Below are positions 7,787 to 35,076 of a DNA stretch of 64,000 bases, in pieces; the first letter of the stretch is position 1; each line of letters begins with the position of its first letter. Below the pieces are notes generated by a model. That model searched no databases. It was given only the letters and a program-made list of their open reading frames with translations, and was not told where the DNA came from. The stretch is taken from positions 36,084,001 to 36,148,000 of the forward strand of contig CM060733.1 of NCBI GenBank assembly GCA_030704615.1. Reading direction: 5' to 3'. Origin of the DNA: Takakia lepidozioides. Taxonomy: Eukaryota; Plantae; Bryophyta. Both the position numbers and the translations under genes were made by a program.

Positions 7787-8289
7787 ACGTACAAGTTTCT
7801 GACAACACACAGTGGACATGAATTTTTCTTTGAATGCATCTCTTCTTGTGGATCCAGCTCCCTGTCCTCATTCCTCTTCCTTGCTCCTTCCAACACACAA
7901 ATCAATCTCATAAGTTTGGCGCTCTCCAATCTTCCTTCATGATCTATATGAGCACAAAGATATGGAGGCTCCAAATGAAGCCATCCAAAATCAATAAATT
8001 TGCAAGTCCATCCGGTGCCGGAGTGATGCCCAATCCTCATAATCCCCCTGCAAATTTTTGGCGAAAAATATCAAAAAATCTTGCCATGACTGACTCTACA
8101 AATCACTCCACCAACTGAGCAGGGCTCAAACCCGCTTTTTGCCCCATATATGTATAGAGTCCCCGCAGCATACCGAGAAACCACCTCATTTCCCCAACTC
8201 CACATATATGCCGCTGCACCATCCCACCTCTCTTGAAAAGAATCCATGACCAAACAATGACTCTCCCAATCAAAGATATGAATCCCCCA

Positions 8290-9160
8290 CATACACATAT
8301 CAGCCCAATAACAACCCTTGTCCAGTCATACACATCCCACCCCTTGTACAAACTAGCAACAGGAAAAACAGATGAGAAAAATCACCAACCCACCAAAAGT
8401 CTTCATGTACCCACCGCCGAGGTTGATAGTAGCTCCCATCCCAAGAAAGGTGAGCTGAAGGCAAAATCTAGCAATTGACCTTTTGCTAGTGTCAAGCAAA
8501 AAATTGTACCATGGTGCTATCACTTGCGTGTCTTTGTTTGCACACTATAGGCCCCTCTCAATTGATCATGCACATCTACACCATGCATAAAACATTGGTA
8601 CTGCAGGTGCATTGGGCTTGAGGGAATTTGCACTCGAGCATTGCCCACAAACCTTCGCCACAAACCTTCGCACTATCATTGGAGAATAAGGCCTAGCAAC
8701 AGGTCTGGCTGCACTGGACAGAAGGTACATTGCCTTCTTATCCCAATACACCACAGCCTTGTCCTCATGCATCTTGAACCAAAATTCTCCCCGTATTCCA
8801 GTCTTACTCTTCTTTTTAAGCGTGAGCTTACGAGGAGCCCCTTGCGCTTGGCCCGCTAGCACGTCCCCTAAGTACCAGATTGTGCAAGTTGTCCGTAACA
8901 ACTACATGACCCACCCTATGTAACCCACAAAGCAGGCGCATGACCACATCATAATCTTCCCCACCCCACTCTTCTCTCTGGCCAGACTTGTAGGCCTACC
9001 ATCCTTGCCACACTATCCATTGTATACATAGTTGGATACTGAATGAGCCACCATAATTTTATCCCCCACCTCATAGGTTTCTAATTTGGCATATACTGCC
9101 TGGCACAGTACTTGCCTTTGAAGTTTCACGATCCCCCTGAAACGTTGTCTCGGCTGATTC
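8290..9160 (-). mobile_element. Degenerate piggyBac-like (DDE_Tnp_1_7) transposase remnant
   Basis: Minus-strand motifs in the expected order across frameshifts: FKGKYCARQYMPN*KPMRWGIKLW, HVVVTDN, RGE..FKMH...VYWDKKAMYLLSS, YQCFMHGVDVHDQLRGAYSVQTKTRK**H (KWW). Confidence 0.78.
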
Positions 9161-9254
9161 CGACTCCACAACTTTGCATTCATTGCCTCATCATCGCCAT
9201 GTGGCTCAATCAACCAATCCTCATCTACACCGAAGTCATATTCCCAATCTCTCT

Positions 9255-9540
9255 CTCACAAACAGAATGGAACAAAGGGGATGATTTGGAAAGAGATCCG
9301 TCGCTAATAACCTTATTAGAGGCCTAACTAAGCAGAATATGAACCCAAGACAAGAAACTACCCAGGACACCAATTTTGGCAAAAGTCCGCATCAAGATGT
9401 CAATATTATCAAAAGCCATCTCAAAATGAAACATCAACAAAGCTAAGGGCTGATTGATGAATTCTGCGAGATCAATGGCTTCATTGACTAGAGGGATGTT
9501 ATCCAAAATGTAAATGTAAAATCACTGCCTAGGTACAAGC
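9255..9540 (-). mobile_element. LINE (L1-like) reverse transcriptase fragment
   Basis: ORF 9324-9506 DNIPLVNEAIDLA..NQPLALLMFHFEMAFDNID resembles the LINE RT DNI....E......LDFEKAFD region. Confidence 0.7.
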
Positions 9541-9650
9541 AGAAGGCCAGACCGATGAATGATATCTGGCTCTACCAATTTGTAGTGATAATCTACAAAA
9601 CGACAAATCGTTCGACACACATTTTGTCCAACTCCAACCCTCACTACAGT

Positions 9651-9762
9651 TCTAGCGACGACCGAAGGTCGGAAGCTAGTTTAGCATAGAGCGGAAATAG
9701 GGTGCCATAGTGCCACGTCATCGTCGCCACATCATCGTAGCCAGGTCATCGTAGACACGTCA
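9651..9762. mobile_element. Helitron-like terminus (hairpin plus CTAG) with subterminal gccacgtcatcgt repeats
   Basis: tctagcgacgaccgaaggtcggaagctagt contains the hairpin cgacc-gaa-ggtcg and reads ...gtcgCTAG on the minus strand. The adjacent sequence is shared with 50614-50660. Confidence 0.55.
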
Positions 9763-10600
9763 GAGGGTTACAGAGGTGGGGGTTACAGAGGGTTACAGAG
9801 CGTTACATGGGTTACAAAGGGTTACAAGGGGTTACAGGTGAGGGTTACAGAGGGTCCTGGGGGTACATGGGTTACAAAGAGTTACATGGGTTAAGAGGGT
9901 CACAGAGGATTACATGGGTTGCAAAGTTTAACATAAGATTACATGGACTGAGGGTTACATAGGGGTGGGGGTGACACTCTGCGGTGCTACAGAGGGTTAC
10001 ATGGTGGTGAGGGTTACACCTAGTGAGGATTACAGAGGGTTACGAAAGCCATCGAAAGGCAGCCGGCTAAGCTCGGTCAATCCCTCCCCACCCCCGCTCT
10101 CATCCCATCGGCGTTGTCATCCCCGGATCGTCGTCGTTCTACGACACCAATCCGCCAGTAACCACGAACCACCATGTAACCCTCTGTACAACCCATATAA
10201 TCCCATGACCCTCTGTAACCCTCACTAGGTGTAACCCTTTGTAACACCGCAAAGTGTCACCCCCACCCCTATGTAACCCTCACTCCATGTAACCCTCTGT
10301 AAAACTTTGCAACCCATGTAATCCTTTGTGACCCTCTGTAACACCGCAAAGTGTCACCCTCACCCCTATGTAACCCTCACTCCATGTAACCCTCTGTAAC
10401 CCTCACCACCATGTAGCCCTCTGTAACCCATGAACCCTCTGTAATACCGCAGAGTGTAACCCTCACCCCCATGTAACCCTTTGTGACCCTCTATAACCCT
10501 CACCACCATGTAAACCTCTGTAACCCATGTAACCCTCTGTAACACCGCAGAGTGTCACCCTCACCCCTGTGTAACCCTCACTCCATGTGACACCGCAGAG
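9763..10600. repeat. Foldback (large inverted repeat) made of GGGTTAC/GTAACCC minisatellite units
   Basis: Left arm (about 9763-10042) is gagggttaca/catgggttac units; right arm (about 10173-10600) is the reverse complement; about 9895-10040 aligns to 10210-10335. Spacer about 130 bp. Confidence 0.85.
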
Positions 10601-11361
10601 TGTTCATTCTCTGTGTATGAGGTGGTGCATGTTGTGGAAGAAAAGCTAAGGGGCTACATAGGCTAGGGCTTGAAGACAACAAAAGCAACCACTTGGAGAG
10701 CATCAAGAAGCTCTAGATGACTCCAAAGGAAAGCATGTGGGTGAGAATTCTATCCATGATGATGTGAAACCAAGCCTAGAGTATTGAAGAGCTTGGAGCA
10801 CATGTGGGAGATCATTGGAGGTGGTCTTCATGAAGAAAGGAGATTGTGGCTCACGGCATGCATAACAACTTCAACCATACATTAGCATGTGACAAGACAA
10901 GGAAGGGGAAGGTGAAGCTCATGTATTCATTCTTTTTTTGCTTAAGTTTTGTGGTGGATGGTTGATCAAGCAAGTGATGCTTATGTGGAGCATGCTCTTT
11001 AGGGCTTGTGACTTCAAGTTTGAGAAGATGAGCTCTTGAATAGAGGTGTGGATACACATTATGATGAATGAAAAGAACACTGACGTCAAGAGGTGGAAGT
11101 GTGTGTGACTAGCCCATGCAAGGGAAAGCACATGGAAGATGACATACAAAATTCAAATTCAAGCAAGGCTTGGCGCTTGTCATTGGGCACATTAGCTTGC
11201 TATGAGTTCCAAGGAGATCAAAAAGAACTTGTCAATTTGGGATGAATGCATTGCAAAGTAAGATAATGCAATCTTGCATGCAGTTAGGGGGGAAGATACC
11301 ATGAAGAAGGTGTTTCTTACTATACTCTACAAACCCTAGTCTCCATACTCTTCAAGAAACT

Positions 11362-11565
11362 GTGTATGGGCTCCCTCTGCCCATCATACACTTTTGTGAA
11401 CAATGTATGGAACCCCTCTGCCCAACATACACTTTGTGAACAAAGTATGGGCCCCCTCTGCCCAACATACGTTTTTGTGAACAGTGTATGGGCTCTCTCT
11501 GCCCCACCATACCCTTTTGTGAACGGTGTATGGATGCAAGTGGAGAGACTTTGCCTACCATACGT
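11362..11565. repeat. Tandem array of ~40-bp partly palindromic units (4-5 copies)
   Basis: Unit gtgtatgggctccctctgcccatcatacacttttgtgaac repeated with small variation. Confidence 0.85.
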
Positions 11566-11609
11566 TTTCATTAAAAGTGTATGACATCTAGGGTGTATCT
11601 GGAGGAGTA

Positions 11610-11935
11610 TTGCCTTTGGAGGATCTTTGGGGGGTCCTTTGAGAAGCTTTTGTAAGACACTTGAAGAGCTCTTGAAGGGGTGTTTGGAGGACTATTGGGG
11701 GTCTTTGAAGACCAATATTTGGCAAACATTTGGAGCTTTAGAGGGCTATTTGGAGGACTATTTTGGGGTCATTGGAGGCTAATATTTGGCGAGCTTAAGG
11801 AGTCTTTGCCAACTTGTCTGAAGGACTTTTTGGGGTCCTTGAGGGCCAAGATTTGGCAGGCTTTGGGGGCCTTAGTGAGATTGTTTGAGAGACATCTTGA
11901 GGGCTCTTGGAGAGTTTTTTGAGAGACCCTGGAAG
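11610..11935. repeat. Degenerate tandem repeat (~60-bp units) in LTR-like sequence
   Basis: Recurrent tttggaggactattgggggtctttgaag...atatttggc blocks. Confidence 0.6.
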
Positions 11936-12532
11936 GTAGTTCTGTCTGTTGGTCATGAGCAAGAGTGTTTAGAGATAAGGGGAGACTAGTGGGATGAGAG
12001 CATTCTGGGATTAGGAATTGCTTTAGTTTCTCTTCCTTGTAGTCTTCTACCCTCTATGTAGGCCAAAACCTTTCCATAGGTAGAGGCAAAAGTCAGTCCG
12101 GGTTTGGGCTGGGGTGTCCTTGCAGGAACGACACTGTGGAGTGTTTTTTTTGGTGTGGGGGAGTTACTGTCTTGATTTTCTTGTGTTTGGATCCCCCCCG
12201 CACCTGCATGCTTGACTGTGCGCCATGTCAGTTTTGTGTGGGCACTTGTTTTCATAGGAGGTTGGTCCGGATTTGATCACTGGCCAATCCTAGAGCATGC
12301 TGTCGGTGGTGAGGCTGGGGTGATGATCAGTCAGACCACCATTGTTTCTCTTATGGTGAGGCTAGGTTGATGACCAGCAGACCATATGAGTGCTTGCAGT
12401 GGATGCAAGTGCAGGTTTATGTCACGAACCTAGTAGTCTAAGCCATAAGCCACAACAGGTTCTCTACCGGTTACCTTGTGGAAAGGGGGATTAGAGACAG
12501 GTTTACAACAGGTGTGGTTGTGAGTTTTCATC

Positions 12533-14200
12533 ACGGAGGTGCCACCAATTGCTGAGGAGAGTGCCGGTACGAGCACCAACGATACTAGTGGGTATACAAG
12601 ATGAGGTGTGCGGTTTAGGCCACCTTCACCTTCAGTGTCATCTGAGGAAGGTTCAGACCCAGAGTTAGGAGGATTCTTGCCGAGGGTGCAAGCCATTTCC
12701 GTGCCATTGTTGTGGGATACGATGGAGGAAATGTATGGAGCATCCAAGGGGCCACGTCAGTACTATGGAGTTGTGGGCACCATCGAGCTTGATGATTTCA
12801 TATAGGAGTTTGATAGTTGGTGTAATTTGCAGCAGATGCGCAATCCACAACTGTTTACACCTTTCATGGCGTGGAAGGGGCTGTTTCAGCACCTTGAGGG
12901 GCCGCCCATGGATGACTACCATGAGTTTAGGCGGGGACATGAGGTGGAGATTGAGGAATGGCAGGTGTATTGGTCACCTGACTATGTCTCCATCACTAGA
13001 GGCACAAGGGCAGTGGTGACACCGGCAGCTACACCGGCAGCTTCTGCAAGCAGCAGTGGGACGTCAAGTGGAACAGGAGCTGGGAAGTCCACCCAAGCTC
13101 CTGCTGCAGCACCAACACCCGTGCCTGCCTTTAACCCAGTTGTGGAGTTCTTCGAGGAGTTGAGGAGAAACTACCAAGGGATAAAGACGGAAAAATTGCG
13201 GAGTTTGCAAGAGTTCCAACGAAAGCCTGCCGAGAGTTTAAGGGAGGCTTACACGCGCATGAGACGATTGATAAATGTAACCCAAGGAGTTACGGAAGCT
13301 CAAGCAGTCCAATTCTGGTATGGGATATTGGACAAGGAGCTAAGGAGAAAGGTGCGGGATGCAACTCTCCTACAAGTGGCCCAACCCACCTTAACAAACG
13401 TGTTTTTGCTGGCAGAGCGGATAGAGCTCAATATGGTAGAGGAGCAAATGGTCATGGTGGGGTTTGGTCAGGAGACACAACGAAGTGGGGCTCCTAGCCA
13501 ACAACAACCACTACCCCAACGTGCTCAAGGCAACAAGGGGGCTCAGGAAAAGCCCAGGGAAGGGCCGAGATGATCTCAATTGCAGAGGTCACTTCCTTCA
13601 TTCTCAGACCAACAACAGTCGGGAGTGACATGTTGGGATTGTGGAGGACCCCATGTTAAGAGAGATTGCCCGGAAAGAGGCAAAGGGCCGGCACAGGCAC
13701 AGCCTACACAACTACAATGTGGGCATTGTGGCAAGTATGGGCATGAAGAGGCCTATGACTTGCATCCTGAGCTGCGGCCAGGCCAGTTCCAAAGGAACAA
13801 TAGTGGCCGAGGACAAGGCAATGTAGTCCAGAGAGGTAGAGGAGGCAGAGGTCGGGGTGGAGGACGTAACCAAAACCAAGGAGCACAGGGGTCAAGGTCA
13901 TGATCAAGGCATGCTGGATAGACTTGCCCAGCTAGAGCAACGTCTTGCTGCCATGGCCACTACTCATGTTGCGCCAGCTCCAAGACTTGAGGTTCAAGCC
14001 CCACCTGCACAACTTCCTATGCCTAGGGAAGACCAGATTGGTATGGGCTTCATGTGTGGAGCCGTACTTGCAAGACCATTGCATGTGGACTCTGCAGCTG
14101 CTATCACTCGAGCAGCAACGCGTGCTCCTGAGCCAAGAGGAGCGGATGTGGATTTTGATCCACAAAGAGGGGAAGCAAGCCGGCAGACAAGGCTTCCATA
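12533..14200 (+). pseudogene. gag: gag with zinc knuckles and RGG-rich region
   Basis: Frame broken by stops at 12602, 12803 and 13571. Retrotransposon gag motif FQRKPAESLREAYTRM; CWDCGGPHVKRDC knuckle; second damaged knuckle CGHCGKYGH; RGRGGRGRGGG. Confidence 0.8.
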
Positions 14201-14699
14201 GTCTTTCACATTGGCTGAGACAGTGCCAACTATGTCATCGATGGCACCCGCTCCCCCAAGTGTGTCAGAAGTAGAGCCACGAGTGTCATTACGGAGAGTT
14301 GATGTGGCTCGGGAAATGCCAATGGGTGGTGCAGCAAAGCAAGGTGCAGCCAGTACATTGTTGGGGGCGGCTACGGCAATTTGCCAAGCTCCATTGTTTT
14401 CTGCCACGACAATTGCAATGCCGGGGATGCGGCCAGCTGCAGTGTTTAGACTGGCAGCTAGACTCTGTGAGAGTGGTGATGCATCGGCACTATCTGCGGG
14501 GATAGCGGATCAGGTGCAGTGCATGGATGCCCTGGATTCAAGGGTGAAGACAGCCACAGCTGCGCCATGGCAAGCGGCAGCTGCAAGGTTGCAAAAGTTG
14601 TCAGCTAGACCAGCCATTGAGCGTAGTATGGTGACTCATGGGGTAGTTCTGGTGGACAATCAGGATGATGTGTTTCAGTTGGGTGGCCCGGCTGGGAGG

Positions 14700-15000
14700 A
14701 GGTATAGGCCACTGCGGGTCTTGTTGGACTCAGGAGCACAGCCATTGATGTTGGGGAAAGCAGCAATTGCAGGCTTGGGCCTTACAGAGGCGGATTTGAA
14801 GCCTTGTCCTTTCCAAATTCAAACATCTTTGGGCGGTTCAGAGAAAACACGAGGGATTACACGCCATAAGCTCTTCATTCGATTGCAGCCAGATCATCCT
14901 ACATATGGCTCTGTCATGAGAGCTAAAGCCATTGTTATGGACGCGATGTCTTATGATGTACTTGTTGGTGAGGCTGTGTTATACCCAATGGGCTTTACTT
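14700..15000 (+). pseudogene. Retropepsin-type aspartic protease domain
   Basis: VLLDSGAQ active-site motif (Asp at 14727) and downstream YDVLVG. Confidence 0.8.
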
Positions 15001-15440
15001 TGGACTTTTGGGAGGAAACGGCATCCTACAGGCCGGAATGGCAGTCAAGGGATGGTGGGCGTGCACTGCTCCCAGTGCGGTTTATTGGGAATATAGCGGT
15101 GGATCATAGGAACATGATGCCCACATTGGCTGCATCCTCAGGGGTGGTGGCTTGGGGTGGTGAGCTCTTGGAGGGCAATAGCCATGCAGATGATAGGCCA
15201 CCACCTGATGAGGACAAACAATTGACATACAATGCTGATTTGCTTCCTCATGTGTCTGTTCATATTCCATTGTGGGGTACAGTTAGGAATTTGCATCGAG
15301 TAGCAGGCGAGTGTGTGCACCAAGCATGGCAGGAGGCCTATCCATTGGTGAGTGAGGGGAGTTCAGTGACATCACCTGGACCTCCTCAGTTAGCTCCTTT
15401 GGATACAGTGCCCATTACCTGGCAACCACCTGACTCAGGG

Positions 15441-16400
15441 ATTTGTTTGCTAGACCTGTTTGGAGGCATGAGCACTGGGCTTGCAGGAGTGTTGCAAGCT
15501 AGGATTAAAGTACGCAAGTACTTGTATGTGGAGAAGGATGAGATAGCTCGGCGTATTTCTATGCGCCACATCGCCTTGCTCACACACCGGTATCCTGAGT
15601 TGTTGTCTCTCTCAGCAATTCAAGGGTATCAAAAGGCCTTGCCAATAGACATTACCTTGCTGGGGGCGGATAATTTGGACCGGCATGGTGCCATTGACTT
15701 GGTGATAACTGGATGGCCTTGCCAAGGACACTCTCCCACTTGTCATGGGAACGGCTTGGATGATGCTCGATCGCATTTGTTTTGGGAAATATTGAGAGTG
15801 TTGCGTGACTTGCAGACGAGACAAGTGCAACCTCTAGCCTATATCTTGGAGAATGTTCCTCTTATGGGGGACTCTCGGGCCAGGGTTATGGCCAGTATGC
15901 ATCAAGTGCGGTCTAGGATTGGATTGGCGGTGCTATTGGATGCAGCAGCGGTGGGATCACAAGCATCGACCTCGATTGTGGTGGACCAATCTTGCACCAC
16001 CAGAGCTGCTCAAGAGAGCATACAATACCATTCAACGGCCACCCAATCTCACAGTTGAGGGCATTTTGGACCAAGGGAGGCAACCACAGAGGGTGCGACA
16101 TGATGACCATCCACCTCTAACAGTGGTAAATCGAGTGGGGCAACCACGTGCGGCCTTGCCTACGCTCATGAGCTTTCCCTCGTCTCATGCTTTTCAAGAT
16201 AATGGTCCTGGGTTGATTTGGACAGTGTGCTACAGCAATTGGTGGAGCCCAATGCAGATGAGCGAGAGCAGGCAATGGGATATGCCACGGGCACTACAAC
16301 TGTGCCAACTCTGTTAGAGGCATCACGCCGACATGTGTTGGGTCAAGCAATGGATCTAAATTGCTTGACATGGGTCATTGGCTTGTGCATGGCTGAGCAA
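15441..16400 (+). pseudogene. C5 cytosine DNA methyltransferase domain inside pol
   Basis: Motif I LDLFGGMSTG, II YVEKD, IV VITGWPCQG (catalytic Cys at 15720), VI YILENV, VIII HRPRLWWTN after a frameshift near 15963, IX EPNADEREQAMGY after a frameshift near 16218, X RRHVLGQAMD. Confidence 0.9.
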
Positions 16401-16919
16401 CGGAGGTTGCAGACAGTGGTGGCTACTTATGCATTCCCATTTGATATTGTATCCTCTCTGCCAACTGGGACGGTTGAGGTAATGAGTGGGGGCAAACACA
16501 GGATCATGGGGTGCAAACACCCATGGTAGATGTGGGATGAGATGCGGTAAGAGAGAGTCCTTAGATCTCTCAAGCAGCAATATGAGGAGTGGGGAGAGCC
16601 ATACACTGAGGATCAGTTGGAGGCCAAGGTGGCCAATGTTTTTGAAGAGGTTGAGAATGTTTCTTCCCCAGATGATGTTCTCAAGGTGGTTATGGCAGAG
16701 CAAGTGGAGGCTATGCCACAGTCAGCTTGGGCGGACAAGGCCCAAGAGGTTGCTATCTAGCAACCAAATGATTCGTCTCCTACCCCCAAGCCTGATGTAC
16801 CCAAGGTTACAGTCACTGAGGACAATTGGGAACCAGATGTTGGACCTACAGTCACCGAAGGAGAGAGACGGAGGATCCAGCGATTTCTAAGGGCTTATAG
16901 AAATTGCTTTGCCTTCGGT

Positions 16920-18260
16920 TTGAAGGATTTGGGGAGTTTGAAGGGTCAGGAGATTCGTATTGATTTGGCAAGTGACACGCCAATCTTTCGAAGGCCCTAC
17001 CGGTATAGTGACATGGAGAGGTCATTGATCCAGTCACGGACTATGGAGTTGTTCGAAGTTGGATTGGTGGAGTTGTCAGGCGGGGAGTATGCCTCGGCAA
17101 CGGTGATGCCAGCTAAGAAGGATATCTATGGCAATTGGACAGAAAGAAGGATGTGTGGGGACTATCGTCCTATGAACCGTTAGACTAAGTCCGATAGATA
17201 TGTCATGCCAACTCCAGAGGAAATCTTTGATGTCATTGGGCATGCGAAGGTGTTTAGCACATTGGACTTGCGATCTGGTTACCACCAATTGCCAATCAAA
17301 GAGGCTGACAAGCAAAAGACGACATTCTGGGGGATTGACCAACATAGGAAGGATTGTTTGTACCAATGGCGCTTCCTACCGTTTGGGTTGAAGAATGCTC
17401 CGACAGAGTTTCAGAGGGTTATGGATAGGATTCTCGCAGGGCTAGACTTTGCCCAGTGTTACATTGATGACATCATCGTCTTTAGTGCTACGGTTGAGGA
17501 GCATGAGAGACACCTTCAGGTGGTGTTTGAGCGCTTGAGAGCGCATAGGTTGAAATTGCACCCTGGGAAATGCAAGTTCTTCCATAACCAGATTGAGTAT
17601 CTGGGCCACATGATATACCCTGGAGGATTGGGTGTTCAAAAGACGAAGGTGGAGGCCATTGCACGCATTCCACGCCCCATAGATGTTAGCAGAGTTCGTG
17701 CTTTCATGGGATTGACAAACTACTATCGACGGTTTGTCAAGGGATTTAGCAGCATTGCAAAGGCTCTTGCTAAGTTGACCAAGGTGGGTCAGGAGTGGCA
17801 GTGGGAGGAGGAGCAGGAGGAAGCCTTTGAGGAACTCAAGGCTCGATCGACTTCTGCACCTATTCTGAGGCGGCCTATTCGGGGGTGGCCTTTCCAGCTA
17901 CATACGGATTGGAGTATGCTGGGGATTGGAGCAGTGTTCACACAGATGGATGATGAGGGAAGAGAGTTCGTAGTGGCATATACTAGCCGCTCAAACAATG
18001 ATGCCGAGGCGAAGTATAGTTCCTATGAGAGGGAGTGTCTAGCTGCGGTATGGGCAGTGGCACATTTCAGATGTTATCTCTATGGCAATCTCTTCACCCT
18101 TGTCACGGATCACCAACCGTTGAAGTGGTTGATGGAGTCAGACAAGCTTACAGGGAAGCTTGCACGGTGGCCACTTATGCTTCAAGAATACGACTTTCAG
18201 GTGGTGCATCGAGCCGGTATTGTCAATCGGGATGCAGATGGATTGAGTCGTAATCCATGC
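16920..18260 (+). pseudogene. Reverse transcriptase and RNase H
   Basis: RMCGDYRPMN, FSTLDLRSGYHQ, LPFGLKNAP, YIDDII, EYLGH; RNase H FQLHTDWS, YSSYEREC, LVTDHQPL, DADGLSR. One in-frame stop at 17181. Confidence 0.95.
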
Positions 18261-18639
18261 ACGAGCAAGCATGATGATACTGGAGCTCGGTGGGATGGTG
18301 AGACGGATGAGGAGATGGTGCCAAGATGGCATGCATCTGCTTTTTTGTGCATCCTAGCAATGGGAGCTCAAGTTGGTCCATCCCATAGCATTGGTCATGT
18401 AGATGGTGTGCATGACAATCCGGAGATCAGTGAGGAGCTTGGTGGTGCTAAAGATGTACATGAAGATGCAGCAGTGTTGGCCTACCTTCGTATTGGAGAG
18501 ACAACAGCCAGGGTGACTGCTAAGGAGAGAGATCGGATCCTACAACGAGCCAAAAGGTTCAGGGGACTCACCTACTCCGAGTATGGGAGGATGGACGAAT
18601 GAGGATTGTGCCTCATCCAACACAACGAGCGCGATTGGT

Positions 18640-20060
18640 ACGCCATGCCCATGAGGAGTTGGGACATTTTGGGGTGCGGCGCACTCATAGTTTGCTGCAA
18701 GGACAGTACTGGAGGCGGGGCATGCACACGGATGTGCAATAGTGAGTGGCAAGTTGACATTCTCCATCTGGAACATATCCACACATGCGTATATAAATAC
18801 TTAAAAAACCAAATGACCATCAAAACTGGAAGTTGCGGACGAGGCTTATAAAAGTGGAGACGGTCATTTGCCTATTTAAGGATTTCTGCTCACATATGTG
18901 TATGTGTTCCAGGTGGAGAACATCAACATATTGGATAAAGTGGACATGGAGAAGCACCCCATTACGAAGCAGGAGACACTACAAAAAGAGCTTCAAAGGG
19001 CATACCATGTAACAGGCCCCAGTATAATCAAAGACGAAACCCCATTCATTCAATGGGCAATTGAATGGTTGCCCATCCAAATGATTTTCGTTTGCTTTCA
19101 ATCTTTGCCACTCTGTTCAACATACCATGTATTAGGTCCCGGACTAATATGAGATCAATCGAAATTCATTCGATGGCTCAACGGATGGTTGGCCATCGAA
19201 ATGATTTTAGTTCACTTTGAGATGTATGATAGAGTACGAGCTTCTTTCAATGCATCTACTCCACAATTGCATCATTTACCCATTATGGGTTTGGGCTATC
19301 GTTGGAGTCTTGACTTCGCAGGCCCATTGCCACTAACGATTCACCATAACAAGTATGTGCTGGTGATGGTGGAACATTTCTCCAAGTGGATTGAACTGGT
19401 GGCATTGCCTGACAAGGCAAGTGAGGGGGTTGCGTATGCATTCTTAGATCGAGTGCTTAGCCAATTTGGTGCTCCAGCCGAGGTACTCACGGACCAGGGG
19501 AGAGAGTTCTTGGGGGAGTTTCAGGCTTTGTGTGAGCAAGACTTGATAGATCACCGCACTACTTCTCGGGATTATCCCGAGGCTGATGGCCTGGCAGAGA
19601 AGGTTGTACAAACAGTCAAGCGAGGCTTGTGCAAGTATGGCTTGCAGAAGGGACACTTAGGAGATTGGGACCTTCAACTACCTTGGTTGGCCATGGGCTA
19701 CAGGTTTAGCAAACAAACATCACTTGCCTCGTTCTCGCTGTATTTCCTTATCTTTGGCCGAGAGCCAGATTTGCCTACATCTATTCGCAGGGAGACTGCA
19801 AAAGTTATCAACCTTGATGATCCGGATGTGTGGACACAAGCATGTACCCAGCAGGCAGAGTTGTTCAAGAGAGTCATGCCTATGGCTTTTGAGAACCTTG
19901 CTATTGCCCAACACCGAAACACGTTGAGGTACGCCACTATATGTGGAGGGGGATATCGGCCAGGTGTTCGGCGTTTCCACCCTGGGAACTATATGTATCT
20001 GCAGCAGACAGCGACTACGACTTTGGATGTCACAGCAGGGCATGTGATTTCTAAGGGTCC
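18640..20060 (+). pseudogene. Integrase (HHCC finger split by an insertion, DDE core)
   Basis: HEELGHFG..RT at about 18650; core WSLDFAGP, VLTDQGREF, DGLAEK. Confidence 0.92.
18753..19220. mobile_element. ~470-bp hairpin-rich insertion in the integrase zinc finger
   Basis: Imperfect ~70-bp inverted repeat spanning 18753-18927, then two related ~100-bp palindromic units starting at 19001 and 19121. Integrase resumes at YDRVRASFNA. Confidence 0.7.
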
Positions 20061-20209
20061 GGGAGGTGTTGCCTTCAGGAGTGTTGATTCTGTGGGGTCA
20101 AGATGGCATGGTATGGAAGGACCATGTGCGCAATTGTGCGCCATGTCACCTTCCATATGTGGATGGGAGGATAGATCCCAACCTTGCAGTGGTACCTGCA
20201 GGGTTGCGT

Positions 20210-20359
20210 TGCATGCTATGTGGGCATGTTGGTGGTGCCGCGACCATGTTGGTGTGTGACAAATGCTCAAGGGGGTGGCACATGGGATGCTTGACACGGC
20301 CACTTGAGGAGGTTCCTAGTGGAGAATGGTTGTGTCCACGATGCCTTGGACATAGGTAG
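20210..20359 (+). pseudogene. PHD finger at the C-terminus of the polyprotein
   Basis: CMLC...MLVCDKCSRGWHMGCL...VPSGEWLCPRC is a complete C4HC3 with the conserved Trp; stop at 20357-20359. Confidence 0.92.
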
Positions 20360-20702
20360 TGGGTATGACAATGGTGGAATTGACAAGTGATCCAAGGTCT
20401 AGCTGATGGGAGCTCAACGCCATGGATACTTAATTGAAGATCATGGATTGCAGGAAGGCGAGTAACGATGGGGCTACTTTTGCACCCGGCCTCTTGATCT
20501 ATTGACTTTAGATACTGGGACATGTGCGATTGAAGACCAAGCGATGATTTTATTGAGATGGATACTTGTCAGCTATCCAGTGTTAGAGGGACCTAATCAC
20601 CAGCTAGGGGGGCGATTGTGGCATAGTTTTCTAGGATTGTGTGCTTAGAATGTATGGTGGACAACGATGTATGTTGTGGCACGATGCTTAGGTGCACGAC
20701 AT

Positions 20703-23700
20703 ATGAATGATCCAAACTGCAACAAAAAAATCAAATAGAACCCAAATCAATAAATGGTTGAAAACATTACGCAAATCCAAAAATCCGCCCACCGGCATTG
20801 ACAACGACCTGTACGAGTTTGCAAATGCAACTCAGTCATCCAAAATCATTAACCTCTAACACAAAAATCCAGAATTGAGAGAAATTTCAAAAACCGAATC
20901 AATGGATATCACAGATGACGACAATTACGATGTAGATCTTGATATCGTGCACAATGGAGATCAACATCAAATAGCTAAATATTTTGTGATAAAAAAATAC
21001 AAGCTCAACACTTCGCAAGAATCAGCATTTGAACGTTTCATAGATCCTCAAAATCACCATCTCGATGGAAGAAAACAAATGTTAATGTATGTGGGAGGTG
21101 CTGCCGGAACGGGAAAGACAGAAATAATTAAAGCAATCCAAACGTACTTCATGAAAACCAAGAGATCCACAATATTGAAAATCGGTGTCTACACAGCAAA
21201 CGCCGCAACCCTCATAGGGGGATCAACCATCCACGCTCTATTGAGACTGAAAATCAGCTAGACTGTCAACGAATCCGACACAAAAAATTTCATAAACGAA
21301 TGGTCCGGGACAGACTATTTGATTATAGACGAAGTATCTATGGTCGGATGCAACATAATCGCCGATATCTATCTGAAGTTACAAAAATTCAAATCGAACA
21401 TGTTACCATTCGGAGGACTCAACATAATGTTCATGGGCGATTTCATGCAGTTTCCACCAGTCACTGACGCGCCTCTATATTCAACGAACATACAACCTAT
21501 ATTCACATTCACAAAATACACACAAAAAAAGATTATAGGCAAGAGCCTATGGGAAAATTACATACGGCCTAACACAATCATATTGACCCAGCAAATGAGA
21601 CAAGCCCATGATCTACAATATGCGAAATTGCTACAGAATCTACGTGAAGACAACTTCACCCAAACGGATTTCGAATTATTACAGACAAGATTCATGTCGA
21701 ACCTGAAAATCAACCTCTTCAACGAACCATGGGATAAAGCAACGTACATTGTACCTCGAAACCAGTTAAAGAACGCCATCAATCACCAAATGATAGAATA
21801 CTACACACGTAAATCTAACCACGCATCCTACACCATAGTAGCCACAGACACCTACAAGAAGCACGTACTCCGCGACGAGTTCCAATTCGCAATCCGACAG
21901 ACCGTACCCGGGAATAGAAGCCACAACCTTCTTCCATTTTTGAGATTGTACAAAGGAATGACAGTCATGCTAACCGACAATTTGTATCATAGATTGGGAC
22001 TTGTAAACGGTGCAGTCGGACAAATAGTGAGGATCTCAACAACAGAAGACGATTGGATCGTATGGGAAGATAATTTAATGCACCTGCCAAATCACGTATT
22101 AATCGACTTCGGGGAATTCATCAGTCAACACTAAACATTGAGCAGCATAAATTTAGAAAATCTCCTAGAAAACGTAGTGCCCATCATACCTGTTTCAAGA
22201 ACGTTCGATTATCACCACATGGAGGATGAACTGAAAAAACCAAATAAATTCAAAATCAGCAGGCGTCAATTGCCTCTGATACCCGCATACTGCCTAACCG
22301 ACTACAAAGGCCAAGGCAAAACTTTCGACGGGATAACCATCGACTTGCAAAAACCACCAGATGGACACCCCTTGAACATGCACAACATTTACGTCACACT
22401 GTCTCGTTTGCGTTCCCTACAAGGACCAGTATTACTTCGGGACATTAAGTTCGAAGACATCTAAGGAGCCAAATTCAAGACAAGCTCACTAGAGTTCATG
22501 GCTCCACAAGCCGATTGTAACGTCCAAAAACAAAAATCACATAAGACCACAGAACACATCAGCACATTGAATACAAACCTTGCCGCCAAAACGCTCCAAC
22601 CAAGACACACATACGGAGAAATAAAAATGCCAACCAATTCTAAAGCCGAACATCCCACACCGATAGAATCAAATGAAAACCAAACTTGCTCAAAATTAGC
22701 TCCTGCACCGCTCAAAATCATAGAAATCAATTCAAAAGACGAACAATCCGACACAGAAAACACAAATTTCCGCCAATAAACATATTGGCACGAAGATCTC
22801 TTATTGACGGCGCACGACGAACAAATCATCTTGGATGACAATGGATGGTTATGTGACCAGCATTTGGCGGCCGGGATGCAAATACTATTTGATCAGGGAC
22901 TGGAAACACAAAACTACCAGTAACATGCATATTCGACTCTTCTGGGCAGAACGTCAACAACAACCATTGGATTCGACAATGATAAATCCGAACGAAACGA
23001 ATTGTCAATGTACGGTGTTCGATTCCAGCATGCCCGCGGATAAGCGGCTACAGACCGAAATAGAACAACATCTCGCGAAATTAATCCCAGTCCCACAATT
23101 CAATTATATCTATGCCGATGTCATGCAACAGACTGACGGTTCATCCTCTGGCGTATTTGCAATAGCTTATGCCACGGATATAACATTCGGATTAAACCCC
23201 GCACATTCCCAATACGCAACATCCGCTATGAGAACCCACTTGAGAGATTGCAACCCATAAGTGGACAAATTGTGTAGCCACTGGAGTCGACATTTTAGTG
23301 AGGCCATCAAGCATGCCATTTCCAAAACAACATTAAATTTAAAATGGTGTAGTGTGCGTGGTGCTGGTTTGCTATTGCGTGGGATCCAGCCCGATGTTGG
23401 GAGTGCCATAGGTGTGTGCGTCAGTAATTGTTGTTTCCTTCGAGGCTCATTGTCCGGATGCTATGGAGGGCTTGGGTTTCTCAATTTTTCTGGATGTTTT
23501 TTTTTCTTTCCTTATTTCGGGAGGGCAATCAGTGCAACTACATGGGGTGGTTATTTGATGTGATGTCTGATGCTTGGGGAGGGACGGACGGAGGGAAGGG
23601 GAGGGGTATCTGCATACCGGGCAGAAAAGGGGGTTCAACTCCCCCTCACTTCTTGGGCATAGATAGGGGTATGGCTATGATGGTTATACTTTTGCATAGT

Positions 23701-27200: not shown

Positions 27201-30200
27201 TAGAAATCCCTTTACACAAGCATCAACCTGCTGTGTGTGGTTTGCCCAATAACTAGGCCTCAAAAGGGCCTGGGCTTTTGGCTCAGCCTCGAGACTTTCA
27301 AAGTTTGTAAACAGAGGTACAGGCACAATTCCCTTGATAGATATGAAGAGAGCGTCTCTCTGGTGAGACGCGATCGGGCGCAGGAGGCGCCAACCCCGGA
27401 CAATGAATCAGAAGATGAATACTGTCTTCAGGTTGCCCACACAACGGGCAATTCCAATCTCCCTTTCCTCTTTGCTTCTGTTTGCTGTTCAAAGGTAGAC
27501 TTCCCTTTCTCTCCCATAGGGGGAGAGAAAGGCAAGGAAAGGAAAGAAAGGAAGTGCAAACAAACTTGAAAGAGTCCTCAGGAAGCCCAAAGAGAAGTGC
27601 AAACAGATTGCAAATGGTCACTTACCCGACTCAGAATTCTGCCCAGAGGCGTAGAGTCAAAAAAAGACATGGGGGCCCGGAAAATTGAACTATTGATGCC
27701 CTCAAAGAAAGCTCTGGAGCCCCTTAGGCCCAAAGCAACAAAGAACTGTGACCGTCCAAAGACAAAAACACCACTGGCAATGGCGAGAGTAGCATATACT
27801 CCAACCAGCAGTCGATCTGATATAGCTGGATTAGAAATCTCCGTGGCAAGCCAGTAGTTGCTGGACATCTGTAAAATAACGAAGGTAATTTGAGCCACCA
27901 TCATCCCCATACAGATCCACCAACCTTTTGAGATGGTAACATAGTCTCTGTAAATTTGGGAGCCAGAATCACCTGTCTCTTTCTCCTCCTCTTGTGTCAA
28001 CTGGCTTGACTGGTTTGGCAGCTCTCTCCGGCTACTATCCCGGCTTAACACACAACTTGATTTTTTCAACGATGGGTTCCTCCCAAAACTGGACGATGTG
28101 TTTCTGAAAAGAGTGATCTCTTCTGCAGCATTTTCCTCATCGGCGGCATGGCTAATTCGCGCACCTCCCATGGCTTCATGGTGAGCGTAAACAAGTTGTT
28201 CAAAGACTGTTCCATCTTTCATCAGCTCATCATACCTACCTTGTTGTTTAATTTCTCCCCCCTCCATGACCTAAGAAGACCAACATCGCAAGGAAGCGTC
28301 AGTTGCAAGTACGAACTTCAACAAAAAGCATCACATGTTTCCCTCAGGCCTCTCAGTTTCAGATGACACTTGTCCTCCAGCTCTACGTCGCTAAAATGCT
28401 GTCCTTAAAAAAAAACGGAGCAGAAACTCTAATTTAAAGGCTCAGAAGATCAATCCTCAATCTCATCCCTCCTACATTCTGCTTTTGACTTACTAATCGG
28501 ACTCCATGCTGGGGAGAAGAAGTGACTGGCAAAAATAGAAGGTTATGGAGAGACTACCAGGATGAGATCAACACTAGGCAGGAACTCCACTTGATGAGTT
28601 ACCAGAATCACGGTCTTGTTTGCCAGGGCCCCCATGACACAGTTCTGCACAAATTAACATAGAACAGAGGATGCATTGTCAGGGGAAAGGATGCTCTCGA
28701 AACTCAGAACATATTGGACTATCAAGATTGTGTATATTCAGCTGGCAAAGATAAAAGAAGGTGGAAGATGAGTGGACACATGACAGGTAAAAGGTTTTCA
28801 ACAAGGAAGGCAACAAAACCTTGAAAAGGCTGGCCTGCGTGTGTGCATCAACAGCACTGAAAGGATCATCCAGAAGATAGATGCCTGCATTTCTGTAAAC
28901 TGCCCGAGCCAGTTGGATTCTTTGCTTCTGTCCTCCACTCATGTTGATTCCTCTCTCTCCTATCTCTGTCATGTCTCCATATGGCATGCTCTCCAGGTCT
29001 TTATCTAATGCACAAGCTTGGAGTGACTCCAGGTAGCGGGTTGTGTCCATTGGCTGTCCAAAGAGAACATTTTCCTGCAGTGTTCCACTCTGAATCCAAG
29101 CTGACTGGGCCACATATGCAATGCTGCCAGACACTTTCACCTGAGATTGGCAGATAATGATGGATCAAAACTTCATCTGTTTGACATTGTCTAATCGAAG
29201 CTGAGAAAATTGCTCCCATCATGTCACTGTTGGATATTAAATTTGCATTTCTTTTGCCCAGAGTGACTATCGCTGCATGTTGGGATTTTTCAGTCAAGGC
29301 AAAACTATGTATTACATGTCATGATGTAGTGTAATATTTTTCATCTCCAGAAATACAAATACCCAGAGACGTACAGAACTTCTTTGAGATGTGATAATCA
29401 TTGACAAACATGAATTTCTGCTACTGCAACAAGACAAATATTAAAATGCCAGCTGAGAGCATACATACAACTTGTTCAAAGGCTTTGAGAAGTACATGAC
29501 ATCTTCAGGAGGGTGTGTGCATTTCACAAAGAACTTGGGGAGGTCAACGACGTAGACTACCGTGACACATACAATGGTGGTCATCAAAGCCCAAAAAGCT
29601 TACATTTCCTGATAGTTTTGGAATTTCTCCAAGAATAGAATAGAGGAGGGTAGACTTTCCAGAACCAACGGCTCCACAAACAGCCACTTTGTTCCCGCGC
29701 TTGACTTCCAAGTTGATGCCCCTTAGAGTAGATTTGTGTAATGTGGGTTCCCAGCTCAATGTGCCATCCTTAATCTCCACTGCTAGCTGGTCTTGATCTG
29801 ATTCTTCCTCAACCACAGCATCCTCCCGGAGTTCATCATCCTGCAAGTACTGGCTCAGTCGGGTTAGCGATAGCTGAGCTTGGATTACAATACTAAGAAC
29901 ATCGGGCACCTGCCGAATAGGATCTTGAATGATCCGAAAAGCAGCAAGAGCTGTGAATGCAACAGAAGGGGTGAGTTCATGGCCCAGGGCACAATAAGAT
30001 GTGAATACAACTGATGAGACCAGGGATGGGGTCAGCCAGAAGAGTATAGTGCCCATTGATCTCCTCCGCTGCACGGAAGAAAGCCACTTGAATTCAACAC
30101 TACGGAGGCCTGCCACCATCTCTCGAAATTTATCTTCCCAGGCCTGCAATACAGTCTTCATACTTTAAGAATGTGATTACTTACCAATCAATGTCTGTAA

Positions 30201-32827
30201 CTGGCAGTTTAAGAAAAATACACAACTTAGACTGCTATTCACAGATGATTGTTGTACCTATCAAAATCAGTAGAGGTTCACTGTCCAATGGCACAAAATT
30301 AGTCCACTGATTCCCAGAAAAACAGTTAATAAGTTATGGCGCAAAACATCTGCAACAAAGTTGGCATGACATAGCAAAGACTGGCCTGTAGTTTGATGAT
30401 TTTCATGTTGTGAAGGACTTCAGTGGATGCCCTTAGACGGTCATCCTGGGCGCGCATCCTCTGCACCTGGAAAATAAGATTTGGAACATAACAACATTCC
30501 ATGCTCAATGAGGAAACACCAAAATGTCTCAAGGCTCACAAATTTCTTCAGAACTGCACAAATACCAGATGGCAATGTACAAGAAACTTGACACAATTAA
30601 GTGAAAGACTGGATTACGGATGCTGCCAGCCTCAGAGTAACATGAATTGAAAGCAATCTACTCCACTTGTCGCTGAAAGTATTCCATACCTGGGCTCGCT
30701 GCATAGCTCGTGCTAAGGGAGTGTTGGCAACCATGGTGAGGACCACGATACAAAGACCTGGGATAGTTGCCATGCCTACTGTGTAGAAAAGAATGGCAGA
30801 AGCTATGGTAATCTGTAGAGGAATGACCCAAACTTGATGTAGCCACCATGGAAACTCTCCCAGCCTGTAGGCATCCACAGCTAAATAATTCACAATCTCT
30901 CCAGCTGCATGTCTCTGCCTCCCCAGGTTTGAGAGCTTCAATTGTTTCTGGTATACTGCCCCAAGGAGACCAGAGCGGAGCTGCATCCCCACACTCCTGC
31001 ATAATAACTTTAAATGAGTGGGAAATGAATGAATTGACTGGAATCGAAATGATACTTCCTAGGGGAAATTACAAAACTTTGCAATGTCCAAGGCCCAAAG
31101 AGCCTTATAAGGCGCGAAAAGGATGCACAAGAGAAAGTTGGCTCAAAAAAACTTATGGAACAAATGAAAGCAGGATACAAGACAGAATTTGGGCCCTCGA
31201 CAAGCAGCCCAAAAACAACTACTCCACATATTTTCCAGCATGGAGAGCCTCATGGGGAAGTGCATGAGGCTGAGGGTAGGAGAACAAGTTTGACATTCCA
31301 GTTGCCAACATGTAGAAAATACCTCTCAGCTAAACATCTTTTGCTTCATCCTTCTACATCACCCCAGTCTAGCACTTGAAGGTGCACTGATTCTGTGATT
31401 TAGCTTCTGGACGAAGAACTCTTCCTGTTACTCGCCAAAGGATCATACTGGCAGCTGTCTCACTGTAGTTCCGGAACTTGGAATGTACTTGCAATTACTG
31501 GGATAAGAAGGTCTGGAGTGGATATAGGCATACAGCACTTCCTGACACATGATGGAAACGATGTTGCCATGGCTAACCTGTCAAGCTCAATGCTGCAGAC
31601 ATCCCTGTTCCCCTGTACCAATCTCCAAAGAAAGTATACCCAAATGACTACTTGTGCTAACCCCAATTTCAAAATGCAAAAGATGTTAAGAATCCCTTAC
31701 CGAGCACCGAAATACCAATGGCGCTGCGATAGTGACTCCAGAATTTTAGCCACAAATAGAATGGCCACAAGAGTGTACCCTTCCCCAACGAAGATCTGCT
31801 TTCCAGCAGCAAAATCAAGGAAAAACAACAAAACCAGAGGTCCTGTAGCTGATGTCACAGACTTCGTGAAAGCAAGTAGGCCATTAAGCACAGTGGCCTT
31901 CCCATATACAGAGACAAGCGCCCAGAATACTGATTGAGGTTTGGTGGGGTCCTGCCTCTTCTGGAGATCCCAGGCCGCCGAGAATGCATTGTATGCTGTT
32001 TTTGCTTGGTTGTCTGCGTTGAGGTGGGGCACATCAGTTTGGGACAGGGGGCGTTTGTAGCCTATTGACAGTACCTCATCAATCCATGAAAATGTCAAAC
32101 GTCTAAAAACTCCAGCAGTAGCATATGGTGTCTCGTGTGCATTCTCCGTCTCTTCCTTTGAATGCCCCTCGAGTAGAGGCTCTGAAAGACCATTCGCCTC
32201 AGAAAGATTAGCCAGCCTTGCTCCTGTCAGGGCACAAACGAGTAGAAGACAGCAGACAGGCCATACTGCTATGGCCAGAAAGGAATCGACAGATAGTTTG
32301 TGGGATCCCTCAACGAGGTATTCTAAAGCCCACACAGCTGTGAACGTCCCAATCAGAAATGTTACGATCCACCACGTGTAAGCAACATTCTTCGTTGGTT
32401 TCCGCAATCGCATTCGTAAAGAGAATGCAATGGCGATCCATGCTAATGCTTGAACAATCAGGTACGTCCACTCGTGTGAAAACGTTGAGCGTGCTCCACT
32501 CCAAGAAGATATGAGAACCCACAAGGCAACTCCCAAGTTGGCTACGCCCACAAGGGCAGCAGCTGCAGCCGTCACGCTGAATAGGACTGATCCCGCACGG
32601 ACAGAATGTACTGGAAGGTTGGCAGGTACAGGTTGCTTGAGGCTGGTGGAAATACCCAGAAAGACAGAGAAGACGGAGAGGAAGATGAGGTGAGTAAGAT
32701 AGACAATTACATCCCGAGTGCAAGTAGAGGGCCGGGGAAGACCCCACCACAGCAGCTTTGCAGGGGAAGCACAATCTCCCTCACAGTACTGGCCATCCAA
32801 TTGACTTTGATCACCCCCACAAAGCAT
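24248..32827 (-). CDS. ABC transporter C family (MRP-type), spliced
   Basis: TMD0 exon 32827-31701; NBD1 [36 protein letters not shown]; TMD2 [15 protein letters not shown]; NBD2 [25 protein letters not shown]; last exon ends [12 protein letters not shown] at 24248. True start may involve an upstream exon. Confidence 0.93.
27085..27545 (-). mobile_element. 5'-truncated LINE 3' end in an ABCC intron
   Basis: Encodes [18 protein letters not shown] (LINE ORF2 C-terminal CCHC finger) and ends in the shared tail aatgtactcataagacgttgtttgccatagccttgtggccat. Confidence 0.72.
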
Positions 32828-35076
32828 CTCCCATGGCCCTTCCAATACACAAATTACAAAGATTCAGTGAACAACAAGTTGAAACACTTTCACGATGCTC
32901 ACATACCAAAATCAGAAGATAGTAGCGTAAGACTACATAAATCTCGTAGAGTTGAAGGTCTACCTGTCAACGAATGCGCAACCAATGCCAGTGCCATTGG
33001 AGCTCGATTGCTAAAGGTGACCCACAGTAGTTTATCAACCTGCCAATCACGGTCAGAACCCATCACCACCAGCTGTACCCAGTTCTCGAGACAGTGCACC
33101 CACACAATGGAGAAAGCCCCCCGGGGAGCAACTCGTGAGGTGGGTTACTTCACTCAGAATGCAGGGAATCTTTCAAATACTTGGTCGATTCCCGCGACCA
33201 CCGTTTACCAAGAGCCTGCCCTCATGGAGCTGCTTCTCTCTTCCTCGCTCACGAGAACGCAACCCACTTCTCTGGCCTTGCAATTTCCACCTCTTGCATC
33301 CCCGTGTCCCGTCTGTCAGCGATGCGTACTTGCTGGCCCTCCTCTCAACCTCATTCGCATGCTTTCGAAGGTGCAGAAGACTCGCTCACTCCCACCAAGA
33401 CCGGACTTCCCCCACCATGGCCACAATGCTCTCTGCCTTCCCAAATCTCTACACTACCCACCTCGCCTCCCTCATCAGGGCTATCATTCGATGACTCCTG
33501 CCAACTTGTCCTGACGAACCTGTACATGTCCATCTCCAATTCCGAGCTCCACACCTCTAATTAAGCTCAACTCTTGCCCATCGCAGGCCACACATGTCGC
33601 TACGAAACGGCCCCGCAGCCGACGCTTTCCAATCGTCAGCCTTGCCGTCTTTATAACCCAGAGGGCTTAACACTTCACTCCCGTCGCTCTACTCATCTGT
33701 ACCGCTTCTGTAGATCTCAAGGAATTTTAATGATCCCTGAAGCAGTGTTTGGCACCTCATCTGTTTGTGAATATTTCGAGTTCTGAAACCATGTCATTTC
33801 CAGCTAGTTTTCTACTGCGCTGCCTTCATTCTCCTTCTTATATTATCTTACTTACACAGTCGGCCCTCTATAAATGTTACCTCCTTATTAGAGGGTCGAC
33901 TCTATCTCCCACTCTACTCTCTTCACTACTTGGTGTAGCTGAGTTATCTCGATATGATAACATACGTGGGGTTGACACTTGAGACGAATGGCGGCGGAGC
34001 AGCCTTGTAGACCACAGCTTCAGAGGGTGGGGCCGCCACCCTGACATTGAGAGGGTATACGAAGGAGAGGAGGGTTCTCCGTGTGCTACTTACTACTTCA
34101 GTGGGCTCTGCACGCAGCCCCCACTAAAAAAACGTAAGCATGAGCACGGACCATAACTACACTAGTTAATTGGGGTTGTCTGAAAGAGCAAGCTTGAGGG
34201 TCAGGAGATGGAGAGAACAGGCTGCCACATGCTAACATCAAGGAAACAGAGTAGAGTAACAGAGACCTAGAGAGTAACAGAGTAGAGAAATCTGGAATCT
34301 GGAAGCACAGTGCGCAAAGCAGGCCTAGTTTGTGAAGGTGACTCTATAGTGAAGCCAGGGAAAACTGCCGACGCAGACAGTCACATGGAAGTTTGGAGTG
34401 TGCTTTGGTGCATGTTCAATGAAATATTGGGTGCGGGGAGGTCGGCATTTTGACTGTGGAATGATCACCTGTACCAATTGGGAATTCTTGCGAGAGGCTT
34501 TTATTTTCTGCCAACCAGCCCATTCTATTCGATTTGAAATCGGCAACAATCTCACTAGGCCGTTGTACAGGCAGGGCGTACGTTCGCACTACCAGAATTA
34601 GCCACAACGGTCAACAATGCTTGATTCTCAAAACATCCCATTACCGCACGTGGAGTTGCAGCGAGCTTCAGTCGATGTAGATCTGACCAGTCGGGCTTCT
34701 CGGCAGAATGTTTCAGAAGGGGCAATTTTTTCGTTCCCCGTTCCAAACTGTTAATGCGCAGTCAAGGCAGACTGCTGCATGAAAGCCAGGACTGAAAACA
34801 GCCCTCTTTCGTCTACAAGGGCCGCCATTTCCTGCCTCAACTCAGGCCTATGCAGCTCTTTTTTCAACCAGACTGTGCACATCAGAGCTCCCCTTCTGTT
34901 CTGCAATTCCTCCATGTCTCGTTTGTAACTAATTCCCGGCTGCCACCAACACAACTGGATACAAGATTTATGAGTACCCTTCTAGCATGTTGGCATGTTA
35001 CCATATGCGAAGTTAAGAAAAGCTCAATAAACGCTAAAGCGAAGGGACAATGTATAGTGTGGAGTACGAAGGCTAC

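Follow-up and report, generated by a model that had tools for sequence, protein, structure and literature searches.

A PHD finger that closes a retrotransposon polyprotein raises the questions of whether it belongs to the integrase before it, what it would read, and how it relates to a DNA methyltransferase (DNMT) encoded by the same element. The case considered here lies in a 64,000-nucleotide stretch of Takakia lepidozioides DNA, hereafter the window. The account that we favour, at a probability of roughly 50%, is that the finger is the integrase PHD of a dead Gypsy-DNMT3 copy, and that in relatives it would bind unmodified histone H3 and tether integration to quiet chromatin.

The finger and the decayed element around it

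The C4HC3 PHD finger is complete at 20210..20344 on the plus strand and closes the Pol frame of a Gypsy element that has decayed. The stop-to-stop plus-strand frame at 20048-20359 reads LRVREVLPSGVL...CAPCHLP...C55-C58-C70-C73-H78-C81-C96-C99...stop, with ligand codons at 20210, 20219, 20255, 20264, 20279, 20288, 20333 and 20342 and the ORF stop at 20357-20359. The ligand spacing is normal for a PHD, the Pfam PHD match (E=1.6e-10) is better than the cut-off, and the assignment agrees with the model of an 81%-identical relative, P0001. Furthermore, six-frame translation of the window contains a single instance of the C4HC3 pattern, and none of 30 shuffles has one. The first-pass annotation, which had placed a complete finger at the polyprotein end, was correct on this point. 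Its span of 20066..20359 does contain the finger, but its first ~35 codons still belong to the integrase and encode the latter half of the SH3-like barrel at the C-terminus of that protein, so that the break between the integrase and PHD frames lies inside the integrase. Specifically, the rest of this SH3/Tudor-like barrel, with a PCHLP motif whose Cys is invariant, and a linker occupy 20051..20209 according to the fold alignment. The single frameshift proposed near 20055 is real but lies a few bases earlier: it is a one-base shift at 20048..20052, the point at which intact relatives begin to align in the other frame. This copy contains at least five frameshifts in all.

The domain order of the element is gag-protease-DNMT-RT-RNase H-integrase-PHD, all on the plus strand. 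The gag region with zinc knuckles (12722..13903) is broken by a stop at 13571 and a frameshift near 13822-13900; its Pfam Retrotrans_gag match is weak (E=8e-4), and it matches residues 1-371 of Marchantia P0027 at 53%. The aspartic protease region (14202..15100), with LLDSGA at 14721, was assigned from our own AP profile and the motif position, and its relatives match Pfam Asp_protease_2. The DNMT3-like C5 cytosine methyltransferase (15438..16364; Pfam DNA_methylase, E=1.1e-10) retains motifs I (15453), IV PC (15711) and VI ENV (15849) and contains frameshifts near 15962 and 16220; the label 'DNMT3-like' derives from PMC5890265 (partial text) and from RT kinship. An in-frame stop at 16758..16766 separates the Gag-protease-DNMT ORF from the RT ORF. 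The RT and RNase H (16761..18560; Pfam RVT_1 and RT_RNaseH) contain YIDD at 17460 and a decay stop at 17181. After a frameshift near 18560, the N-terminal zinc-binding part of the integrase (18560..18753; 62% to residues 587-646 of P0223) carries stops at 18740 and 18743. A 469-bp non-coding, unstranded insertion of another repeat follows (18754..19222), as delimited by an X2 contig that joins 18753 to 19223. This repeat has high depth and contains a direct repeat of 98 bp as well as an imperfect palindrome. The remaining integrase (19223..20047; Pfam rve, E=3e-14) comprises the catalytic core (D 19312, D 19492, E 19597), a long helix and the first strand of the C-terminal barrel; its core frame (19153-20259) is adjacent to the PHD frame, and the integrase model of a relative matches the PFV and Ty3 integrases. 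Downstream of the finger are a 3' non-coding motif with a G tract resembling a polypurine tract (20582..20621; 92-95% over 41 nt in related loci) and a 'B' terminal repeat (20617..20701) ending in CACGACA (20695-20701), whose start was placed from the B position in loci L008 and L032. The A-B copy that comes next in complete relatives is missing after this single B.

With its frameshifts, several stops and the insertion within the integrase, the window copy is dead. It belongs to a repeat family in the host genome: 45,341 contigs of run X1 fall on a 9.6-kb stretch, a count that is not a copy number, and X1 depth drops more than 100-fold after about 20790. No LTR pair was found within the window, and a search for TGT(C/T)A(C/T)G in 6000-12800 gave a single site, at 12420, without a matching target duplication; high-depth sequence extends further upstream of it. 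No match to the element was found among the viral contigs searched. Run X8, presumed to be RNA, does not cover the PHD, which speaks neither for nor against its expression. CpG is depleted in the element (0.46, against 0.61-0.69 in host genes), a depletion that is not specific to its own DNMT.

Several further features were observed in the window. Contigs of X1 and X2 link 12451 to 20433, which suggests internally deleted derivatives. Upstream of gag, at 9750-10600 and 11352-11513, there are tandem arrays of the TGTAACCC type in mirror arrangement, together with a tandem repeat of 41 bp. A broken PIF1 helicase at 20790-22500, likely a Helitron relic, adjoins the 3' end of the element. The host genes encode a glycosyltransferase 61 (5921-7786), an ABCC10-like transporter (27578-32863, minus strand), a RabGAP-TBC protein (35961-37526) and a MATE protein (56459-58138).

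Integrase-PHD fusion and clade placement

The PHD-frame query recovered one-ORF integrase-PHD proteins (P0006, P0008, P0015-17, P0019 and P0021) among 21 matches. The best 150 representatives at 50% identity contain a PHD in 130 cases, with all eight ligands in 121, although this set is biased toward the PHD because it was recruited by a PHD-containing query. Domains in this set were called with our own profiles, seeded from proteins of the analysis, and Pfam was positive at E<=1e-3 for 20 of 24 proteins spot-checked for the PHD. In the 130 PHD representatives, the finger starts 129-184 residues (about 150) downstream of the integrase core. An RT-only query, which is unbiased in this respect, yielded 50 proteins whose integrase is complete and whose tail reaches at least 190 residues; a terminal PHD is present in 45 of these. 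Among 80 metagenome loci, including some duplicates, 66 contain both core and PHD; the two share a frame in 55 of these and are connected without a stop in nine. Locus L021 consists of two intact ORFs separated by one stop, Gag-protease-DNMT and RT-RNase H-integrase-PHD. The in-frame arrangement in intact relatives, a check named beforehand, was thereby confirmed. The frameshift near 20048 is attributable to decay, since a single ORF spans both domains in relatives. A one-letter difference from the window at 20048 is present in 14 contigs of X1, 8 of X2 (the same sample as X1) and 1 of X5, and this variant makes up only ~13% of X1 depth, a level that short contigs cannot resolve. A programmed frameshift at this site was considered and rejected, as out-of-frame loci are a minority (11) and intact ORFs are common.

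In each of 15 pairs compared, with synonymous sites near saturation, the finger has a pN/pS below 1; the mean of 0.51, compared with 0.36 for the core, indicates weaker constraint on the finger. The PHD is thus almost certainly a genuine, selected part of the integrase, and it is fixed directly behind the SH3-like barrel across the clade from green algae to bryophytes. Some proteins of the algal-type branch (P0055, P0063, P0078, P0021, P0133 and P0333) have the order RT-RNase H-DNMT-integrase-PHD, followed by a stretch that we call Tudor-like from its sequence appearance and by a methylase-like tail. This tail is present in 69 of the 130 PHD representatives, 42 of which also have a DNMT; it matches the Pfam D12 adenine methylase in P0021 (E=4e-4), and its neighbourhood in the atlas, at 0.95, consists of phage clusters that resemble SAM methylases.

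A tree was built from RT-RNase H by quick search without bootstrap (151 rows, with 1 left out because its coverage was short). The window element groups there with Marchantia and Calypogeia; all three belong to a clade of 108 rows, supported at SH-aLRT 99, that also contains Closterium, Klebsormidium nitens (three proteins) and Scenedesmus. The three seed-plant gypsies, all those sampled, branch outside this clade, and we take them to be chromoviruses. With its weak base (0.78) and its rows recruited by the PHD query, the integrase tree was left out of the monophyly argument. Among named relatives, RT places Marchantia and Calypogeia closest, and DNMT places Sphagnum closest. K. nitens P0308 has the order protease-DNMT-RT-integrase and shares the integrase tail of the clade up to the end of its gene model; we infer that the three K. 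nitens models are the elements of PMC5890265 (passages available).

In relatives, the terminal sequences form split direct repeats in the order A-ORFs-B-A-B. B is repeated in 19 of 52 loci and A in 5, and L008, L011, L041, L057 and L061 show A-ORFs-B-nn-A-B with TGTCA...GACA ends. In 19 of 66 loci, the repeats meet end to end at an internal junction with 2-3 nt between them; three of five complete copies are flanked by target duplications of 4 bp. Relatives therefore appear from their sequences to combine integrase-type insertion with DIRS-type repeats. Because it shares the RT clade of K. nitens, the architecture of P0308 and, through its relatives, the split direct repeats, the window element is by sequence criteria a land-plant member of the Gypsy-DNMT3 clade described from Klebsormidium. 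That description, KnitGypsy-Dnmt3 (de Mendoza et al. 2018, PMC5890265, partial text), reports a Gypsy pol with an intronless DNMT3-like domain and DIRS-like split direct repeats, from the alga only. Both have a Gypsy order with an intronless DNMT upstream of RT; the DNMT of KnitGypsy-Dnmt3 lies in the Pol ORF, whereas in the window subfamily, a land-plant one, a stop stands between DNMT and RT. A PHD is not mentioned in the searched text or supplements of that paper, of which Fig. 4c was out of view.

The finger had also been described as standing in place of a chromodomain. It does occupy the same terminal slot, which in chromovirus integrases is called a 'putative targeting domain' (PMC3059260, partial text), but the data do not point to a swap: Pfam Chromo matched 0 of 120 RT neighbours, none of 24 scanned relatives and nothing in the window element, and the seed-plant gypsies lie outside the clade. 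Ten PHD-less proteins scanned as candidate chromovirus references also lacked a chromodomain. The two groups share a chromatin-reader fold at the C-terminus of a Gypsy integrase; in chromoviruses this is a chromodomain or CR motif (PMC3059260, in the passages seen), while the window clade has a PHD, split repeats and an RT branch separate from the three sampled seed-plant gypsies.

Predicted histone reading by the finger

The nearest solved fingers by sequence are KDM5 PHD1, CHD4, PHF21A, ATXR5, UHRF1 and BAZ2. In the P0001 model (mean pLDDT 84; finger pLDDT 81-95), the finger superimposes on ATXR5-H3 with Z 9.8 and an rmsd of 1.4 over 52 residues, and on ORC1b with unmodified H3 with Z 8.5 and an rmsd of 1.7 over 51 residues. 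The barrel matches the C-terminal domain of foamy virus (PFV) integrase (Z 6.3, rmsd 3.0, 66 residues) and, further, Tudor/KOW barrels. In both sequence and fold, the clade finger best matches structures determined in complex with H3 or with unmodified H3. In 59 terminal fingers, a PxGxW-type pocket is found in 54, an Asp after C3 in 54, and a Gly two residues before the His in 55, with Trp at this position in none. We take these sites to be the N-terminal H3 pocket, an H3 contact and the position of the K4me3 cage Trp, respectively. PHD fingers of the ING/BPTF type read K4me3 with an aromatic cage that includes a Trp two residues before the His. Judged by these residues, the clade finger lacks a K4me3 cage.

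On this modelling, binding of the H3 tail by the finger is predicted with somewhat better than even confidence. Since the finger models on readers of the ATXR5/ORC1b type and lacks the K4me3 cage, it is further predicted to tether the integrase to unmodified H3 tails, a proposal to which we give an even chance. ATXR5, ORC1b, BAZ2A, UHRF1 and KDM5 PHD1 share sequence and fold with the clade finger; they are host chromatin proteins with fuller acidic contacts. In many readers of unmodified H3, acidic residues contact R2 and K4, and such residues are poorly kept here: the second Asp (C4+1) occurs in 11 of 136 fingers and an Asp or Glu within the four residues before C1 in 21 of 59 terminal fingers, while the window finger has neither. 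This weakness is one reason to consider that the finger might be a non-histone module of the integrase, which reads no mark but has a part in barrel stability, in DNA binding or in contact with a host protein. The invariant Cys-His pair of PCHLP, just upstream of the PHD and absent from Closterium along with it, suggests a structural zinc site shared with the barrel, and the low pTM of 0.47 for the P0001 model allows various packings of the domains. Nevertheless, the N-terminal H3 pocket and the first Asp are retained in 54 of 59 fingers, and the best fold matches are H3-bound plant fingers; we regard the non-histone module as less likely than H3 binding.

The H3-tethering account proposes that the finger of working relatives would hold the unmodified H3 tail and bring the integration complex to quiet chromatin, which would bias insertion away from K4-methylated, active chromatin. 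Such a putative steering of insertion has about an even chance. Gypsy-7a_cRei of Chlamydomonas, a PHD-bearing Gypsy element with LTR 'subparts', inserts 2.6-fold more often between genes, although, as its authors point out, this bias could reflect selection after insertion, and its PHD precedes the integrase (bioRxiv 2022.06.16.496473, partial text). Its order is RH-PHD-INT with no DNMT named in that text, whereas in the window clade the PHD stands behind the integrase and a DNMT is present. Proteins with this RT-PHD-INT order branch just outside the 108-row clade. The Gypsy proteins P0305, P0311 and P0314, which also branch there and have the order RT-PHD-integrase, match Pfam Dam (PF05869). 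REM1 of Chlamydomonas reportedly also carries a PHD in a Gypsy element.

The methyltransferase and the meaning of the clade

The element does combine a reader and a writer, as had been proposed: 75 of the 130 PHD representatives encode a DNMT in the same ORF, and RT, integrase, DNMT and PHD share one ORF in 24 of 106 clade proteins. This co-occurrence, which was to be followed across the RT tree, is incomplete, because the Closterium branch has a DNMT in 9 of 17 rows but a PHD in 0 of 7 long tails. Outside Closterium, 63 of 64 long tails have a PHD, and the lone exception is a divergent Cys/His finger. Since the Closterium branch persists without the PHD, the finger is dispensable for spread there. 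In P0176, P0268, P0274, P0320, P0276 and P0294 of Closterium, a short basic tail (GPxTRAR) lies where the PHD would sit; it presumably resembles other integrase tails and may be a replacement tether.

The two ORFs of the window subfamily are divided by a stop of recurrent context. It reads TAG CAA CCA in the window (16758-16766) and TAG CAG TTA in L021 (5083-5091), both in full agreement with UAG-CAR-YYA, and a third family (L011, 6940-6948) has a stop at the same codon in 22 of 23 loci, 20 of them as TAG CAA, with CAA CCC fitting at 5 of 6 positions. This context was found at 0 of 95 decay stops. CAR YYA after UAG is the readthrough signal of TMV (PMC2754532, partial text), and by its sequence the stop is a likely candidate for such a signal. 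The split is not general, since a second subfamily (L041, L056, L057, L059 and L067) fuses DNMT to RT without a stop.

An earlier proposal treated PHD and DNMT as a coupled unit of the ADD-DNMT3 kind, in which the finger would guide or gate methylation where the element inserts. Their frequent sharing of an ORF would suit it, as would their sequence-based dating to the base of the clade for both domains. However, in the 24 one-ORF proteins the DNMT lies before RT in 8, after RNase H in 16 and beside the PHD in none. In the ADD of DNMT3, a GATA-like knuckle and a PHD directly precede the catalytic domain. Neither the Pfam results nor the 60 PDB matches listed include an ADD domain; the finger is a canonical PHD located 3.8 kb downstream of the DNMT and across the conserved stop. 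The encoded protease would also be expected to cut the DNMT and PHD parts from each other. The analogy with DNMT3 is thus not supported, and we consider joint action improbable. As Closterium keeps the DNMT without the PHD and the stop splits them in the window subfamily, reader and writer look separable and independent on sequence grounds.

The H3-tethering account accordingly leaves the DNMT to a separate role. In the window subfamily the DNMT ends the Gag ORF; it would therefore be made in Gag amounts and could methylate freshly synthesised cDNA. RT-integrase-PHD would be scarce, arising from occasional readthrough of UAG-CAR-YYA. Retrotransposon DNMTs can methylate CG de novo, as shown for other elements (PMC5890265, passages available). 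Finally, the idea that the PHD comes from a host gene that adjoins the window copy or was recently caught by it, prompted by its position out of the integrase frame and by several Marchantia matches whose annotation is that of a stand-alone PHD protein, has a negligible chance, as those gene models start within the integrase, the fusion is intact among sequences less than 50% identical, the 3' motif and terminus of the element come after the finger, and one-ORF RT-integrase-PHD proteins and locus L021 rule it out.

PHDs in retrotransposons have been called widespread (PMC6673714; also PMC8557442 and PMC2836005; partial texts). EpiLTRs of Cymbomonas and Euglena likewise join a reader and a DNA methyltransferase in one LTR element, with a chromodomain, DAM and a DNMT4-related enzyme, but no PHD is named in the passages available (bioRxiv 10.64898/2026.05.21.726589), unlike in the window clade; the text seen of PMC12344493 added nothing on elements with a chromodomain and a methyltransferase. 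For the PHD-tailed gypsies that the first-pass annotation mentioned for lycophytes, no description was found, and 'phd' occurs 0 times in the portions available of PMC3350952, PMC2864245 and PMC6317226. Openly accessible article text, without Repbase, figures, theses, subscription papers or bioRxiv supplements, gave no description of a PHD in Gypsy-DNMT3, of representatives of this clade in bryophytes, or of the stop between DNMT and RT.

Taken more broadly and only tentatively, these elements could represent a green-lineage Gypsy clade apart from chromoviruses, with a PHD for unmodified H3 as its targeting module, split repeats, leaky-stop dosing of the DNMT in bryophytes, and an algal stack of DNMT, PHD, Tudor-like and adenine-methylase-like parts in one ORF. 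The findings extend DNMT-carrying Gypsy elements, a family already partly described, into land plants, and add a candidate programmed readthrough for a plant retrotransposon. Some annotated 'PHD' and 'DNMT' genes of Marchantia are fragments of such elements. Steering of insertion by transposon PHDs has long been guessed, with no test found in the literature passages available. The clade offers such a test of PHD-directed integration, with a finger fixed in the integrase, many bryophyte copies, including those of the chromatin model Marchantia, and a PHD-less sister in Closterium.
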